Positions 1,000 to 36,924 of a stretch of DNA of 36,924 bases are shown here, in pieces. The translations under genes and the position numbers were made by a program. The DNA is from Candidatus Freyarchaeota archaeon (GTDB lineage Archaea; Asgardarchaeota; Jordiarchaeia; Jordiarchaeales; Jordiarchaeaceae). A model generated the notes under the pieces. That model was not told where the DNA came from, did not search any database, and saw only the letters and a program-made list of their open reading frames with translations. Numbering within the stretch: the stretch's first letter is position 1; each line of letters opens with the position of its first letter. The DNA is taken from contig JAUQZE020000289.1 in the NCBI GenBank assembly GCA_030587365.2, positions 1-36,924 on the forward strand. Reading direction: 5' to 3'.

Positions 1000-1100
1000 T
1001 GGTGGACACTGTGGGAATCGAACCCACCGCCTTCTGGTTGCGAACCAGACGCTCTGGGATACCGCTTGTTTGGCGGTATCTTCCACTGAGCTAAGTGCCC
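1000..1100 (-). tRNA. tRNA-Ala(CGC) with a ~24-25 nt intron in the D-loop and an encoded CCA
   Basis: The reverse complement reads GGGCACU-UA-GCUC-[33-nt D-loop region]-GAGC-G-UCUGG-UUCGCAA-CCAGA-AGGCG-GUGGG-UUCGAUU-CCCAC-AGUGUCC-A-CCA. The G3:U70 Ala identity pair is present and the anticodon is CGC. The D-loop region contains the hairpin GAUACCGC-CAAACAA-GCGGUAUC. Confidence 0.85.
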
Positions 1101-18416: not shown

Positions 18417-19088
18417 TTATTATACACCCGAAAAAGACCATACTATTTATTATGATTATGTCGTCTTGGAAAAGGACATCTTAGCGGTCTGTTAGAAATA
18501 CTATCACACTGTTTAATACTTTGAATGCATTGAAACTTAAGGTTATATTAAAAGTTTTTTGAAAATTTGATTTTTGGAGTTCCGAATCTCTAATAATTGG
18601 CACCGAATTGATACTTGAACATACAAAACGGGATATATTCTATATGTTTAGGCAACATTCCTAGTTTTGGGAAAATTTTGCTGGAGTCCTCATTTCCCCT
18701 TTTAACATCTTTCCATAGAAAGGAGACGAGTATTTGCGGAGGCAAGAAACATCCCAAAAAATATAACAACACAGCCGAATAGCATTTTGATTAAAGATAT
18801 GGAATTGTTTGGCTGCCCTGGCAAAAAGGGGTGGTGAGGTCCCAAAAGCCTAAAGAAAGCCAACATCAAATATTTTTGAAGATCCTTCGCCACAAGGAAG
18901 AGAAACCTCAATTAGAGCCTTTTCGAAAAGTAGAAACATTCTGCCGGACTGGTTTTCATGAGCGGAATAAATAAGGTTAATCGAAACTTCTATAAAAGAA
19001 CATTATTTATTTCCTAATGCATAATGTTAATAATTGCAGCGAATATGGTTAAAAATAACACCGCTTCGCTTTTGAGGACGTGAATATA

Positions 19089-20462
19089 ATGGTCTTAGAG
19101 AAATTGGGTGAAGGTCTTAGGAACGCGATAAATAAGATTCTACGTTCAAATGTGGCAGATAGGGAAGCTGTCGAGGAATTAGTTAAAGAGCTTCAGAGAG
19201 CGTTGCTGATGTCTGATGTAAATGTGGAACTAGTTTTTGAGCTAAGTGAAAGGATTAAGGAAAGAGCTCTTGACGAGACATTACCTCCGGGCATAAGTAG
19301 AAGAGAGCATGTTGTGAAAATAGTTTATGATGAGTTAACCAATATTCTCGGTAAAAAAGCGTATCCTCTTGAGATAACACCAGGGAAAGCAAATATTATC
19401 ATGCTTGTAGGGATTCAAGGTTCTGGTAAAACAACCACAGTTGCTAAACTCGCAAGGTACCTCACTAAAAGAGGCGTAAAAACAGGGGTAGTTTGCGCTG
19501 ACACATTTCGTGCTGGTGCATATGAACAACTCTATCAGTTAGTTAGTGAATTGGGTGTAAAATTTTATGGGGATCCAAATAGTAAGAGTAGTGTTTCTGT
19601 AGCCAAGAAAGGAATAGAGGTGCTACAGAAAGAGGGATGTGAAGCGATTATCGTTGATACTTCGGGAAGACATAAGGAGGAAAAGGGGCTAATGAAGGAA
19701 ATGCAAGACATAGCAAAGGCCATTAACCCTCAGGAGATAATATTGGTAGTCGATGGAACCCTTGGACAACAAGCATCTGTTCAAGCCCGAGCTTTTAAGG
19801 AAGCTACAAACATTGGGTCTATAATTGTCACCAAGTTGGATGGCTCGGCTCGTGGGGGCGGTGCTCTTTCGGCAGTAGCAGCTACGGGAGCTCCAATCAA
19901 ATTCATAGGCAATGGTGAAAAGATTGAAGACATTGAGAGTTTTAACCCAACCGGCTTTGTGGGCCGCCTATTAGGAATGGGCGATTTGCAAAGTCTTCTA
20001 GACAAAGTTAGAGAGGCGGAATTAACGCCGGATAAGGAGGCGGCAATGGCGTTTTTGAGCGGAAGGTTTACTTTAAAAGATTTCTTCAATGCTATGGAAC
20101 AACTTAAGAAAATGGGGCCCGTAAGTAAAGTTTTGGAACTGTTAGGAGTTGGCGCCAAATTTCCAAATGAGTTAAAGGATGTTGCTGATGATAAAATGAA
20201 GTACTGGAAGGTGATGATGCAATCAATGACTAGGGAGGAACTGGTTAATCCTAAGATAATCGACCGTTCTAGGATAATTCGAATTGCTAGGGGATCTGGA
20301 ACGCAGCCCAGAGAGGTCAAGGAATTAATCGACCAGTATTTTGCAGCTAAAAAGGTAGCAAAGATGATGGGAAAGCAGAGGTTAAGAGGGAAACATGGAA
20401 TGCAGATACCTCAAGGTATATCGCCAGAACAGATAAAGAAGTGGAAAGGAAAATTAGCATGA
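19089..20462 (+). CDS. srp54: Signal recognition particle protein SRP54
   Basis: N domain; G domain (GIQGSGKTTT, DTSGR, TKLDG); Met-rich M domain. ATG at 19089 gives the usual MVLEKLG start. The tracked GTG at 19080 is the alternative. Confidence 0.95.
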   Translation: MVLEKLGEGLRNAINKILRSNVADREAVEELVKELQRALLMSDVNVELVFELSERIKERALDETLPPGISRREHVVKIVYDELTNILGKKAYPLEITPGKANIIMLVGIQGSGKTTTVAKLARYLTKRGVKTGVVCADTFRAGAYEQLYQLVSELGVKFYGDPNSKSSVSVAKKGIEVLQKEGCEAIIVDTSGRHKEEKGLMKEMQDIAKAINPQEIILVVDGTLGQQASVQARAFKEATNIGSIIVTKLDGSARGGGALSAVAATGAPIKFIGNGEKIEDIESFNPTGFVGRLLGMGDLQSLLDKVREAELTPDKEAAMAFLSGRFTLKDFFNAMEQLKKMGPVSKVLELLGVGAKFPNELKDVADDKMKYWKVMMQSMTREELVNPKIIDRSRIIRIARGSGTQPREVKELIDQYFAAKKVAKMMGKQRLRGKHGMQIPQGISPEQIKKWKGKLA

Positions 20463-26482: not shown

Positions 26483-26983
26483 TTATTTCTTAAGAAGTTG
26501 AAATGCTAAAACGCTTGGACAAACCATAAAGATCCTCTTTACAGCAGGATGAGGAGACAATGGAGTTTGGGGGTGATGTGCAGAGAGTAATCCATCTTCT
26601 GTTAAAAGATAAATGTTACCATTTAATCTCTTGACGGCATTCAGCTTAGCGTCCTACCCGCTACCTCTTGTGGGAATCATGGGTAGCCTATTTGGACTTG
26701 CATCCTCGAGGGTGGCCGTTTCAACAATTCCATCTGAATCCTCAGCGGTTTGATTTTGAACAATTACAGTATTTTAATTTTTGTGTTCAAAGGCCGTATC
26801 ATTGTCATCCCTCAGATGGATGTACCGTTTGCAGTCCTTAATTCGCAGGATTTCTGCTCCATTGCCAGGCTTCTCAGCCTGCACTTTACAGTGCTCGAGT
26901 CCCACATGATGGATGGATTTCCTCAGCGCCACGAGGCACCGGCAGCCGTCCTTCTGCTCATCACCCAGTATAAAAGGTATCAA
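26483..26983 (-). pseudogene. Possible decayed gene remnant: a 167-codon frame interrupted by only two in-frame stops
   Basis: My hand translation of one minus-strand frame gives protein-like sequence (...HHVGLEHCKVQAEKPGNGAEILRIKDCKRYIHLRDDNDTAFEHKN*NTVIVQNQTAEDSDGIVETATLEDASPNRLPMIPTRGSG*DAKLNAVKRLNGNIYLLTEDGLLSAHHPQTPLSPHPAVKR...). The stops are TAA at 26774-26776 and TAG at 26654-26656. I did not recognise a family, and the frame closes upstream. Confidence 0.3.
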
Positions 26984-27687: not shown

Positions 27688-28059
27688 TTAATCTATGTAT
27701 GCCGTGGATTTTTTCGGCGTGTATGAATGAATTATTGAGTTCCTTTTATAATCTTCTGCTATTGTTTTGGTGCCTTCCCAAATATCGAATAAATTCTTGA
27801 TTGCTTGCGCTTTTATGTTTTCTATTCTGAATCTAAATATCCTTATTCTTCCAAATATCTTCTCTTGAACCAGCCCTGCTTTTTCTAGAAAGTCTAGGTG
27901 TTGATTGGTGGTAGAATAGTTGAGATTTGCGCGTTTTGCTATTTCTGATATGTTTAGTTCTCCCTCGCGGGCAAGGACTTTGACTATTTTTATGCGACCT
28001 TTTGAAGAAAAAATTTGTTCTAGAGAATTTTCCTCGGTGGTTTCGATTTCTCTTTTCAT
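27688..28059 (-). CDS. ArsR/SmtB-like winged-helix regulator, translationally coupled to the upstream orc1/cdc6
   Basis: HTH segment RIKIVKVLAREGELNISEIAKRANLNYSTTNQHLDFLEKAGLV. Its ATG (28057-28059) overlaps the TGA stop of the preceding gene (28056-28058). Confidence 0.75.
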   Translation of the reverse strand: MKREIETTEENSLEQIFSSKGRIKIVKVLAREGELNISEIAKRANLNYSTTNQHLDFLEKAGLVQEKIFGRIRIFRFRIENIKAQAIKNLFDIWEGTKTIAEDYKRNSIIHSYTPKKSTAYID

Positions 28060-29264
28060 CTAACTCCCTCTAATAAATTCAATATCTCTTGTTCTAAAAT
28101 TGAAGTGGGAATATCTGGCAAGCTTATGAGTGTTGTTTTGCCCTTCATTCCATTCCCAGAGATTTCTGTAGCAATAATTCCCTGCTTTTCTAATTCCTTG
28201 AGGAATCCCCAGAACTGAGTATGTCTTCTAGGTCTAATATTATATTCTTCGCATACAATTTTGTATACTTTCTCTGTTTCACTTGTTGTTACATATGCCC
28301 TCTCTCTGGTAAGCGTTCTTGAAATTGCTAATAATAACGCTTTGTGTTGAAAGGGCAAATCTCGTAGAACATCTTTTCGAATAACAGGGTAAATCTCTGA
28401 TTTGGCTTCTCTTATATGCTCAGGCAAAATACGTGTTATGCCTTGCGCATCAGCAATTTTTCCCGCGCGCCATAAAATCTCTAAAGCATATCTAGCGTCT
28501 CCCTGCTTCGCCGCTATATCCGCAATAAATTTTATTTCTTCATCAGTTATGGTACCTACATGAAATGCTTCTTTGACACGTTCACTCAGAATGGTTTCAA
28601 GCTGATCTGCGGTGTATTCCCTTAGGCGAATAATATTTTTTTGTAGACTGCTGATGATACTTAAATCCAGACTCCTAAATAGTTCTTCGCTTCTCATTAT
28701 TCCTATAAGTGAGAGACGCTGAACCGCATTCAGTTGCTCGTCAAAAAGTCTAACTAGGGAGTATAAAAGCTCCTCTCCCTCTCTTCTCAATAAAAAGTCT
28801 AACTCATCAAGGGTGAGAATGACATTTGCATCTTTTTCTTCTAAATTTTCCTTCATAATTTGAAGCAGTTCTTCTGTGGAAAATCCTCGTCTAGGTATGT
28901 TTGGATTGAATGTTTTGACTATTTTGTTGAGAATGGTGAAACTGGTTCTCTCACGTCTACAGTTTATGTGAATGTAATGAATATTAATCCCCCTTCTGTT
29001 TGCTATAGCCACAATTTGGCTTCCAAAATTTTTAGCTAAAGCAGTTTTCCCAGTACCTATATTTCCGGTAATAATAACCTTTTGACTATTTCCCGGCCTC
29101 TCTAAGACCACTTTGAAAATGAGGGCAAGTTGTTTTAACTCGTTCTCTCTATGTGGAAGGTGCTCTGGGACGTAATCAATAGATAGTTTAGATTCATCCT
29201 TAAATATCGATGATGGGCGGCTTAACTCATCTTCCACTATATTAGACACCGCTTGTCCTTCCAT
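28056..29264 (-). CDS. cdc6: Orc1/Cdc6 replication initiator paralog 1
   Basis: N-terminal FKDESKLSIDYVPEHLPHRENEL, Walker A GNIGTGKTA, Walker B LTLDELD, and a C-terminal winged helix. Confidence 0.9.
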   Translation of the reverse strand: MEGQAVSNIVEDELSRPSSIFKDESKLSIDYVPEHLPHRENELKQLALIFKVVLERPGNSQKVIITGNIGTGKTALAKNFGSQIVAIANRRGINIHYIHINCRRERTSFTILNKIVKTFNPNIPRRGFSTEELLQIMKENLEEKDANVILTLDELDFLLRREGEELLYSLVRLFDEQLNAVQRLSLIGIMRSEELFRSLDLSIISSLQKNIIRLREYTADQLETILSERVKEAFHVGTITDEEIKFIADIAAKQGDARYALEILWRAGKIADAQGITRILPEHIREAKSEIYPVIRKDVLRDLPFQHKALLLAISRTLTRERAYVTTSETEKVYKIVCEEYNIRPRRHTQFWGFLKELEKQGIIATEISGNGMKGKTTLISLPDIPTSILEQEILNLLEGVR

Positions 29265-29437: not shown

Positions 29438-30598
29438 ATGATTAGATCCTCTGTGTTCAAAGACGAAAGTACACTGTTCCCCGAGTATGTACCTCCCCTA
29501 CTTCCCCACAGGGAGAAACAGTTGGAACAGTTAATGCGTATTTATCGTCCACTGTTTTCAGATAAACTGGTAAGCATAAATAGCGCCTTGGTAGGGCAAG
29601 CGGGTCTCGGAAAGACAGCCACTTCGAAATTATTTGGACAAAAGATAGAGGAGATGGCTAAACAGTCTGGTTCAAAAATAATTTTTGAATACATGTATTG
29701 CAGTACTGTACGCACCTTACCTGCTGTTCTAAGACAGATAATTATGAAAAATTGGAAGAAAGTGCCAGTTATGGGAATAACTGGAAATGAACTAATAATT
29801 GAATTAAATGACAGACTCAAGAGGGAAAATACTCGCCTTATAATTGCTTTAGATGATGCTAAACTCTTAGGCGGAGAGGCTATACACGGCTTAATTCGTA
29901 GCGCGGAATATTTTGGATATGGAAATGCGTTGGTAAGCACTTTGATTATCAGTAGACCCGAGGATTGGGTAGCACACCTATACCCCCACCTAATAGAGGA
30001 TGTTCACTCTGTAATAGAATTTTTACGATACACAGAACAAGAACTACAGGAGATACTTGCCTACAGGGCATCTCTAAGTTTCTATGAGGGCGTACTTTCT
30101 CGAGAAAATTGTAATATGGTTGCAAAGATAGCAAGCGAAACTGGAAATGCTCGCCATGGAATAGAAATTTTGCGTCATGCAGGATACTTAGCTGAAAACA
30201 GTGAAGACAAAAAAATAACCCCCGAGATGATACGGATTGCGAAAAATGAAGTCTATCCCGAAACTTCTCCGGAAATACTACGAGGTTTACATAGACATGA
30301 ACTAATCGCAGCATTGTCAACAGCCACCGCCCTAAAATACGAAGTTGCAGTACCAATTCACAAGGCATACGAACAGTACCGCATCGTTTGTGAGGAATAC
30401 CAAACTTCCCCAAGATCCACAAGAAATTTCAGAAACTACATCAGAGTTCTTGCAGATATAGGATTATTTAATGCGGTAGTTAAAAATCTCAAACGGGGTA
30501 GAAGAACCGTCATAACATTAACAGATATCCCTGCATCCATTTTAGAAGAGAGAGCCAGAAAACTACTAGAACAGGGAGGTAAAGATAACTACGATTGA
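29438..30598 (+). CDS. cdc6: Orc1/Cdc6 replication initiator paralog 2 (divergent)
   Basis: N-terminal FKDESTLFPEYVPPLLPHREKQL, Walker A GQAGLGKTA, Walker B IIALDDAK (DD rather than DE), and a C-terminal winged helix. Confidence 0.85.
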   Translation: MIRSSVFKDESTLFPEYVPPLLPHREKQLEQLMRIYRPLFSDKLVSINSALVGQAGLGKTATSKLFGQKIEEMAKQSGSKIIFEYMYCSTVRTLPAVLRQIIMKNWKKVPVMGITGNELIIELNDRLKRENTRLIIALDDAKLLGGEAIHGLIRSAEYFGYGNALVSTLIISRPEDWVAHLYPHLIEDVHSVIEFLRYTEQELQEILAYRASLSFYEGVLSRENCNMVAKIASETGNARHGIEILRHAGYLAENSEDKKITPEMIRIAKNEVYPETSPEILRGLHRHELIAALSTATALKYEVAVPIHKAYEQYRIVCEEYQTSPRSTRNFRNYIRVLADIGLFNAVVKNLKRGRRTVITLTDIPASILEERARKLLEQGGKDNYD

Positions 30599-36263: not shown

Positions 36264-36497
36264 ATAACATTAACTCTCGGCTTTTCTCATCACATAACTA
36301 GAATATAACAAAATAGGGAAACGAGTTCAAGGTTCCCCTAACACACGCTCAAATGCCCAAGGCAAGGTGACCAAGATAAAGAATACTAATTACACCTACT
36401 CAAAAGGGCAAAAAACTAATTATTAGGAAGCCGAAATAGTGCGGGCAAAAATTTGTATGACGCGCGACATGAAAGAGAGGTTTCATGCAGCCTTTTT

Positions 36498-36502
36498 AAA
36501 AA
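36498..36502 (-). terminator. Oligo-T tract downstream of the SRP RNA 3' end
   Basis: Minus strand reads ...UUAUUAGUUUUU about 16-20 nt past the end of the terminal helix. Archaeal RNA polymerase commonly terminates at T runs. Confidence 0.35.
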
Positions 36503-36517
36503 CTAATAAGTATTTTA

Positions 36518-36882
36518 GGTGGCAAGTCCTGATGCTCGTCAAATCGCCCCGCTAACGTATCTAACACCTGGTCTCCAATCCGGGATACTGGAAGCACCGG
36601 GCGTCCAGAGTTAGGCTGCTCCTTCAAGGCGTAAGTATCACTATACTCACACTCTCCCGGGCCTAACCGGTTCCTCCGACGAAGGATGAACCAACTTTCC
36701 CTACGGAAAGCCGCCATCCACCGCCGGTCCTCCAGTGCGGATCTTCACTGCCTTAGTGATAGACCGTTTTAGCGGTTAGGATAAGCCTCGCATCAGCTTT
36801 CGGCCCGCCTTAAAGAGGATTTGCGGTCGAGAGGAGAACCTCTCTCAGGCGACCCCTAGCCGCTCCGCCTAGACTTGCCACC
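36518..36882 (-). ncRNA. Signal recognition particle RNA (7S RNA) candidate with a 32-nt insertion in the helix-8 apex
   Basis: A GC-rich island in AT-rich DNA. An 11-bp terminal helix forms (GGUGGCAAGUC / GACUUGCCACC). A helix-6-like hairpin CUUUCC-GUAG-GGAAAG has a GNAR loop. The conserved helix-8 strands AGGCCCGG...AAGGAGCAGCCUAAC are present. Long complementary helix-5 strands pair (ACUGGAGGACCGG with CCGGUGCUUCCAGU; CCGCUAA with UUAGCGG). Confidence 0.75.
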
Positions 36883-36905
36883 ACCTAATGAACACTCTTA
36901 CCAAA

Positions 36906-36913
36906 AATATAAA
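36906..36913 (-). promoter_or_regulatory. Candidate TATA box for the SRP RNA gene
   Basis: Minus-strand TTTATATT is centred about 27 nt upstream of the proposed RNA 5' end (36882). A purine-rich BRE-like AGAAATG lies just upstream. Confidence 0.45.
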
Positions 36914-36924
36914 CATTTCTTTTC

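Follow-up and report, generated by a model that had tools for sequence, protein, structure and literature searches.

The window analysed here is the whole 36,924-nt stretch of contig JAUQZE020000289.1, from a Candidatus Freyarchaeota archaeon that belongs to the Asgard lineage Freyarchaeia/Jordarchaeia, and has a GC content of about 38%. It carries core genes for ValRS, aRF1, Pelota, two Orc1/Cdc6 proteins, TiaS, Pus10, GatA/B, deoxyhypusine synthase, SRP54 and TtuA, together with genes for tRNA-Ala(CGC), RNase P RNA and signal recognition particle (SRP) RNA (Table 1). The Orc1/Cdc6 genes are divergent, with a 173-bp spacer between them; this arrangement, kept in all Freyarchaeia/Jordarchaeia loci, is likely a replication-origin region. 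At a distance of 16 kb from the SRP RNA gene is the SRP54 gene, whose product has an N, a GTPase and an M (SRP_SPB) domain, the last of which is the partner of SRP RNA helix 8. A Pfam scan of the 20 larger ORFs of the window found no gene for a splicing endonuclease or RtcB.

Using cmscan on the whole window at gathering thresholds, we identified the SRP (7S) RNA gene as a match to Archaea_SRP (RF01857) that scored 131.4 bits (E = 6e-30), where the gathering score is 96.5. All helices follow in order and the alignment is colinear, which sets the gene apart from the permuted SRP RNA of the Thermoproteus type. The encoded RNA is 361 nt long. On the minus strand its helix-8 region reads GGUUAGGCCCGG-GAGAGUGUGAGUAUAGUGAUACUUACGCCUUG-AAGGAGCAGCCUAAC and includes the AGCA motif. 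The cmscan alignment places an insertion, given there as [33], between CCCGG and AGGAGCA, that is, at the helix-8 tetraloop position. This agrees with the sequence-only reading, which had assigned helix 8 to this hairpin, proposed a covariance-model search as a check and described helix 6 as keeping a normal GNAR loop (GUAG), as it does in the alignment.

The same SRP RNA gene was found, letter for letter, in four independent NCBI metagenome-assembled genomes (MAGs), in each case beside an identical TtuA-like gene. Because of this identity, and because nine further variants carry an insert at the same site, the insert is not an assembly artefact. Upstream of the predicted RNA 5′ end, TTTATATT may serve as a TATA-box-like element, and a U-run follows the RNA 3′ end near 36495-36500. 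The contig ends only 44 nt from the gene (36881-36924). Three conspecific MAGs with identical TtuA and SRP RNA genes (L001, L002 and L004) diverge directly upstream of the SRP RNA gene, where one has a CBS-domain gene, one an ATP synthase D gene and one a DDE_3 transposase gene together with HTH genes. Such divergence points to an IS insertion, to a rearrangement or to a break in the assembly beside the SRP RNA gene.

Table 1. Features of the SRP RNA gene, its predicted intron and other loci considered in the analysis. Positions refer to the window unless a relative's locus is named.
Feature	Position	Strand	Basis or remark
SRP (7S) RNA gene, colinear	36520-36880	-	Rfam RF01857, model positions 1-317 in order
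5′ exon, ending ...UAGGCCCGGGAG	36654-36880	-	alignment to uninterrupted SRP RNAs and BHB cut rule
Predicted BHB intron, 31 nt, A-GUGUGAGUAUAGUGAUACUUACGC-CUUG-AA	36623-36653	-	homology and BHB geometry
3′ exon, starting GGAGCAGCCUAAC...	36520-36622	-	homology and BHB registration
Outer helix h, 5′ strand CC	36660-36661	-	pairs with GG at 36621-36622; same pairs as mature helix 8
H1, exon strand of the 4-bp central helix, CGGG	36656-36659	-	invariant; pairs with H2 in 39/40 cells
5′ bulge B1 (AG^A), predicted cut after G36654	36653-36655	-	geometry; rule validated on relatives' tRNA genes
Inner helix h′, 10-bp hairpin with AGUG loop, wholly intronic	36629-36652	-	folding, BHB drawing
H2, intron strand of the central helix, CUUG	36625-36628	-	CCUG, CUCG, CCCG or ACCG in relatives
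3′ bulge B2 (AA^G), predicted cut after A36623	36622-36624	-	BHB geometry
Helix 6 GNAR tetraloop (GUAG), uninterrupted	36701-36704	-	cmscan alignment
Helix 6	about 36690-36716	-	scores as BHB-like
Extra Alu-domain hairpin, UGA-GAGAGG-UUCU-CCUCUC-GA	about 36826-36847	-	between helices 3 and 4
TATA-box-like element (putative), TTTATATT	36906-36913	-	about 26-33 nt upstream of the RNA 5′ end; read from sequence
tRNA-Ala(CGC) gene, G3:U70, encoded CCA	1003-1100	-	Rfam scan
Archaeal RNase P RNA	26576-26961	-	Rfam scan, 171 bits
SRP54 gene	19080-20462	+	
Orc1/Cdc6 gene	28056-29264	-	
Orc1/Cdc6 gene	29438-30598	+	
Control tRNA-Val genes of relatives	L005:19682-19773, L010:20120-20211, L009:20511-20606		inserts at variable-loop junction or anticodon stem

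We defined the insert by homology with uninterrupted SRP RNAs, in which the gap falls exactly between CCCGGGAG and GGAGCA (alignment A3). This gives 31 nt (36623-36653), with boundaries that leave no ambiguity, there being no repeated bases at the junctions. An insert had been correctly recognized at the helix-8 tip by the sequence-only reading and, while the 32 nt that it named do lie at 36625-36656, its extent needs revision: the predicted 5′ boundary lies 3 nt, and the 3′ boundary 2 nt, downstream of the one it gave. It had also argued that deletion of the 32 nt recreates CC-GGAA-GG. Applied to relatives whose 3′ flank is GAUGG or GACGG, the same deletion leaves non-GNRA loops (GGAU or GGAC) and a stem one pair short, and we rejected it; comparison of the sequences indicates that the match is a coincidence of the window species.

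Joining the exons at the homology-defined boundaries would instead give UAGG-CCC-GGGA-GGG-AGCA-GCC, in which three C-G pairs (CCC/GGG) close a GNRA-type tetraloop, GGGA, beside the AGCA loop, and H1 supplies the closing C and the GGG of the tetraloop. This predicted helix-8 tip equals the Rfam consensus (CCC-GGAA-GGG-AGCA) in length and shape, and the predicted mature RNA is 330 nt long. We searched for the junction YAGGCCCGGGAG/GGAGCANCCTAAC as an exact 25-mer, YAGGCCCGGGAGGGAGCANCCTAAC, and found it uninterrupted in 13 loci, of which 6 belong to GTDB representative genomes and 7 to JGI metagenomes. The product UAGGCCCGGGAGGGAGCAGCCUAAC thus has an exact counterpart in the uninterrupted SRP RNA genes of these loci, whose carriers include the Asgard archaea Asgardarchaeum abyssi and Baldrarchaeum yapensis as well as Marsarchaeota and Desulfurococcaceae. 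Leaving out one duplicate (L032, of L025), 10 of the 12 junction loci scanned lie inside insert-free Archaea_SRP matches of 110-193 bits, and the other two (L031 and L034) are contig-end fragments with no SRP match. Among the JGI contigs, the junction scan returned only uninterrupted genes of other lineages and no spliced Freyarchaeia/Jordarchaeia transcript. One carrier, L025 (QNBN01000162.1, positions 1-204), belongs to a MAG labelled 'Spirochaetes bacterium', and its archaeal SRP RNA is near-identical to that of Asgardarchaeum abyssi, with one mismatch over the stretch compared; this contig is evidently mis-binned.

We then compared the insert with the motif known as bulge-helix-bulge (BHB), whose geometry is 5′-h-H1(4)-B1(3)-h′ ... 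h′-H2(4)-B2(3)-h-3′, with cuts after the second base of each bulge (PMC4090602). This arrangement follows from canonical pre-tRNAs, in which the central helix is formed between the intron and anticodon-loop bases, the first two of the anticodon included, and the bulges adjoining that helix hold the splice sites (PMC4090602). Drawn accordingly, the window insert reads CC / CGGG / AG^A / GUGUGAGUAU-AGUG-AUACUUACGC / CUUG / AA^G / G, where ^ marks a cut, and its central helix consists of C-G, G.U, G.U and G-C pairs. The motif is near-canonical, being 3-4-3 with a 1-bp outer helix or, if G36622, the first base of the 3′ exon, pairs with C36660 and leaves a 2-nt bulge, 3-4-2 with the native 2-bp outer helix. 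Either reading of the bulge places the cuts after 36654 and 36623 and removes the same 31 nt. The sequence-only reading had been unable to draw a canonical BHB; a near-canonical one is obtained once a bulge is placed 3′ of each central-helix strand, and the intronic hairpin, which it had given as 8 bp, extends to 10 bp.

A BHB motif alone is not specific, because SRP helix 6 (UGGC GGC ... GUUG GU) also scores as BHB-like, and a generic BHB scanner of low specificity returned about 1.6 unregistered BHB-like motifs per shuffled SRP-sized sequence. Only registration with the homology-defined boundaries is informative, and these boundaries are the BHB cut sites: among 289 boundary-offset combinations, a registered BHB occurs at offset (0,0) only. 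The resemblance of helix 6 raises the question of how EndA, the splicing endonuclease, avoids cutting there.

It is conceivable that the BHB resemblance arose by chance, or that the RNA is cleaved and, without ligation, persists as two base-paired pieces. Fragmented structural RNAs are known and, registration aside, chance alone often produces BHB-like motifs. However, the chance of a registered BHB for a random or shuffled 31-mer at these boundaries is about 1.6e-3, and the registered motif recurs in ten diverged variants. An unligated RNA would also have an open helix-8 tip, which significantly reduces SRP19 and SRP54 binding in Thermoproteus, and EndA cleavage products are normally joined by RtcB (PMC4731332). 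We therefore consider chance resemblance or cleavage without ligation to be very unlikely.

To examine conservation, we retrieved the SRP RNA genes of relatives through protein look-ups, using the conserved order M50 peptidase, TtuA, SRP RNA. The closest homologues of the window TtuA (77-83% identity) bear the NCBI names Candidatus Freyarchaeum deiterrae and Jordarchaeaceae, while at lower identity (52-55%) the names are Jordarchaeales, Freyarchaeota and Baldrarchaeia. In this comparison, which the sequence-only reading had suggested, a helix-8 insert is present at the same site in every Freyarchaeia/Jordarchaeia sequence examined, with a length of 31-32 nt for the close group (alignment A1) and, for the distant one, of 18-24 nt (alignment A2). 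Same-site inserts of 24-25 nt were also found in a genome labelled Baldrarchaeia (L040, GCA_054387395.1) and in a JGI contig (L039). In total, the window and 26 further loci yielded ten distinct insert variants of 18-32 nt.

Across the ten variants, the exon bases around the insertion site are invariant, and H2 is CUUG, CCUG, CUCG, CCCG or ACCG and pairs with CGGG in 39 of 40 cells. The outer-helix pairs are both CG in 8/8 sequences. Since H1 is exonic and invariant, support for the central helix is one-sided, consisting of C/U changes only, and we counted this against the intron reading. In relatives, the 3′ bulge varies freely at its second base (A, U or C). No part of the RNA varies more than the hairpin, whose stem ranges from 2-3 to 10 bp and whose loops are unrelated; three of the four hairpin pairs tested show compensatory changes on both sides. 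A conserved splice motif around a variable interior is what one expects of an intron rather than of a functional appendage. The predicted intron has a GC content of 0.39 against 0.58 for the exons, matching genomic GC in the window species only; in several relatives it is about that of the exons, and we dropped composition as general evidence.

The conserved bases could also be those of a protein-binding kink-turn, for L7Ae for example, with G36654-A36653 and G36625-A36624 as the tandem sheared G.A pairs. Both GA dinucleotides are indeed invariant in all variants, and a 3-nt loop (CUU) separates the hairpin from the second GA. Their invariance is explained equally well by the need for G36654 in the mature stem and for G36625 in helix H, and the remainder of the fold fits poorly: 3b.3n would be A.A, U.A or C.A and 4b.4n G.G, so that the CC/GG pairs could be reached only with three G bases bulged out, and in some variants just 2-3 bp of the C-stem are left. 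As the NC stem lacks pairing unless G.G pairs or a three-G bulge are allowed, we rejected the kink-turn, which we regard as extremely improbable.

In terms of folding energy, the BHB is not the preferred conformer. Nearest-neighbour energetics favour an alternative register (GAG/CUU with a 1-nt bulge and a 2x3 internal loop) over it by 5.7 kcal/mol; this register is preferred in the minimum free energy (MFE) fold and counts against the intron reading. The nearest-neighbour model generally penalises bulged motifs. As a candidate for the conserved structure, the MFE register was rejected on its weaker retention in relatives (25/30 cells, against 39/40 for the BHB central helix).

The MFE fold, a continuous extended helix, is more in keeping with a retained lineage-specific expansion, in which C36659-G36654 would close a GGGA tetraloop and the 31 nt would leave the helix-8 tip on its 3′ strand as the side branch of a three-way junction. 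As the end of the 5′ exon contains C-GGGA-G, such a tetraloop could form without splicing. In addition, SRP RNAs of the same lineage have another extra GC-rich hairpin, located between helices 3 and 4 in the Alu domain. Every Freyarchaeia/Jordarchaeia sequence has it, with compensatory changes; Asgardarchaeum, Baldrarchaeum and the two loci with 24-25-nt inserts (L039 and L040) lack it, and a search for a BHB in it gave no convincing one. This hairpin is probably a retained lineage-specific helix and, lacking a BHB, shows that retained expansions occur in the SRP RNA of Freyarchaeia/Jordarchaeia.

For the helix-8 insert, however, retention would leave unexplained why the four bases before the last two of the intron are complementary to CGGG in 39 of 40 cells, the all-Watson-Crick CCCG included, why the indel boundaries match the BHB cut sites and why a branch of unconstrained sequence ranges from 18 to 32 nt. 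The one-pair stem beneath the tetraloop would be unstable, and in Thermoproteus a perturbed helix-8 tip, like an open one, lowers SRP19/SRP54 binding (PMC4731332). Between the two readings that the sequence-only reading had left standing, an intron or a tolerated expansion, the comparative and structural evidence thus favours the intron, with excision predicted, and the expansion is kept as a lesser rival that we judge unlikely.

As a positive control, we applied the same BHB cut rule to three tRNA-Val genes of relatives. Each gave a single solution, and the predicted products are perfect cloverleaf tRNAs of 73-74 nt. The introns removed start with A and end with AA or UA, as does the SRP insert.

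In the window itself, the tRNA-Ala(CGC) gene, which ARAGORN missed, has an insert of about 24-28 nt in the D-loop. Its best relaxed BHB is GGAA GA^U ACCGC..GCGGU AUCC CA^GAGC, with three of four central pairs; cutting there would leave the D-loop AGUGGAAGA, and a perfect 8-bp hairpin competes with this fold. In the RNase P RNA, the P12 region is longer by 79 nt, and an AU-rich insert of 26 nt (26607-26632) precedes the ACAGAAG motif. We rejected this insert as a BHB intron, since in the window it forms a 3-4-3 motif without an outer helix and the central helix is not kept in Freyarchaeum deiterrae (L005); the predicted product would have a linker 4 nt longer than that of an uninterrupted Asgard RNase P RNA (L037:9677-9980).

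These findings lead us to conclude that the helix-8 insert is most likely a BHB intron in a colinear SRP RNA gene, predicted to be removed by EndA and RtcB. The analysis establishes the gene, the position, geometry and conservation of the insert, and the identity of the predicted junction with uninterrupted homologues. The intron reading draws on the placement of the insert, within a colinear SRP RNA of high score, at the tetraloop of helix 8, on the uninterrupted occurrence in homologues of the junction given by the cut rule, and on the coincidence of the homology-defined boundaries with the BHB cut sites. It draws further on the shared site, invariant exons, near-complete central helix and free hairpin of the ten variants, on the perfect tRNAs that the same rule gives in relatives and on the D-loop insert of the window tRNA-Ala gene. 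Published work agrees as regards tRNA introns, reduced protein binding at an open tip and the type of Asgard EndA, an (alpha-beta)2 enzyme with an L1 loop that gives it broad specificity (PMC5829648). The reading is thus well supported by comparative and structural evidence, from which we infer cleavage and ligation themselves.

In the mechanism that we propose, C-G-G-G at the end of the 5′ exon (36659-36656) would pair in the primary transcript with CUUG of the intron (36628-36625), forming the 4-bp central helix. This helix would be flanked on its 5′ strand by the AGA bulge and then the intronic hairpin, and on its 3′ strand by AA(G) and then the native CC/GG pairs of helix 8. The tRNA splicing endonuclease would cut after the second base of each bulge, and RtcB ligase would join ...CCCGGGAG to GGAGCA..., freeing the 31-nt intron, probably as a circle. 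The spliced product would present a canonical helix-8 tip, CCC-GGGA-GGG beside AGCA, as the surface for SRP19 and the SRP54 M domain.

The hairpin may also be kept at times, although we give this only a small chance. Unspliced RNA could be functional, its 31 nt forming a branch beside a tetraloop, C-GGGA-G, that closes locally, and in this close relative of eukaryotes the platform for SRP19 and SRP54 would then be a remodelled one; alternatively, splicing could be a regulated checkpoint, in which case SRP assembly in these Asgard archaea would be gated by the tRNA-splicing machinery.

SRP RNA is universal. If it is spliced in this lineage, SRP biogenesis would depend on EndA and RtcB, and the proliferation of introns in Freyarchaeia tRNA genes would extend to another essential non-coding RNA. 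For annotation pipelines, intron-bearing SRP genes score 30-60 bits lower and their helix 8 is mis-described, and modelling of Asgard SRP structures should take the spliced sequence. We found no report of a simple colinear SRP RNA intron in the literature searched, within which the permuted gene of Thermoproteus is the sole precedent for tRNA-splicing enzymes acting on SRP RNA (PMC4731332). The splicing mechanism is known; the host RNA and the colinear form of the gene are new.

Introns of the same kind are abundant in related genomes. In complete genomes of Freyarchaeia and Atabeyarchaeia, 92-95% of tRNA genes contain introns, often at non-canonical positions, and 228 tRNA introns have been reported (Valentin-Alvarado et al. 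2024, PMC11291895); SRP is mentioned 0 times in that paper. The non-canonical tRNA introns of these groups and of Thermoproteales resemble the SRP insert in size and in having a 4-bp helix, 3-nt bulges and a short hairpin. Those of Freyarchaeia and Atabeyarchaeia share the lineage of the window and differ in their host, which is tRNA, not SRP RNA. Outside tRNA genes, the introns of crenarchaeal rRNA genes and of cbf5 pre-mRNA likewise have a BHB and are processed by EndA, in different host RNAs. The rRNA introns are usually much longer and often encode homing endonucleases, as is generally known and as described in PMC5829648.

The closest parallel is found in Thermoproteus tenax and T. uzoniensis, whose SRP RNA is permuted and circularised; in it, a BHB likewise sits at the helix-8 tip and is processed by the tRNA splicing machinery (Plagens et al. 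2015, eLife, PMC4731332). There, ligation restores the apical loop for SRP19 and SRP54, as predicted for the window SRP RNA, and the Thermoproteus lineage is, like that of the window, extremely rich in tRNA introns. The two systems differ in gene organization: the Thermoproteus gene is circularly permuted, with the BHB formed between leader and trailer, and its mature RNA is circular, whereas the window gene is colinear with an internal intron, of 18-32 nt across the lineage, and its mature RNA would be linear. The hosts also differ, Thermoproteus being a member of the TACK group and the window host an Asgard archaeon. Plagens et al. speculated on an ancestor with a simple BHB intron at the same place in SRP RNA (PMC4731332), and the colinear gene described here matches that hypothesised ancestor of the permuted Thermoproteus gene, in another superphylum.
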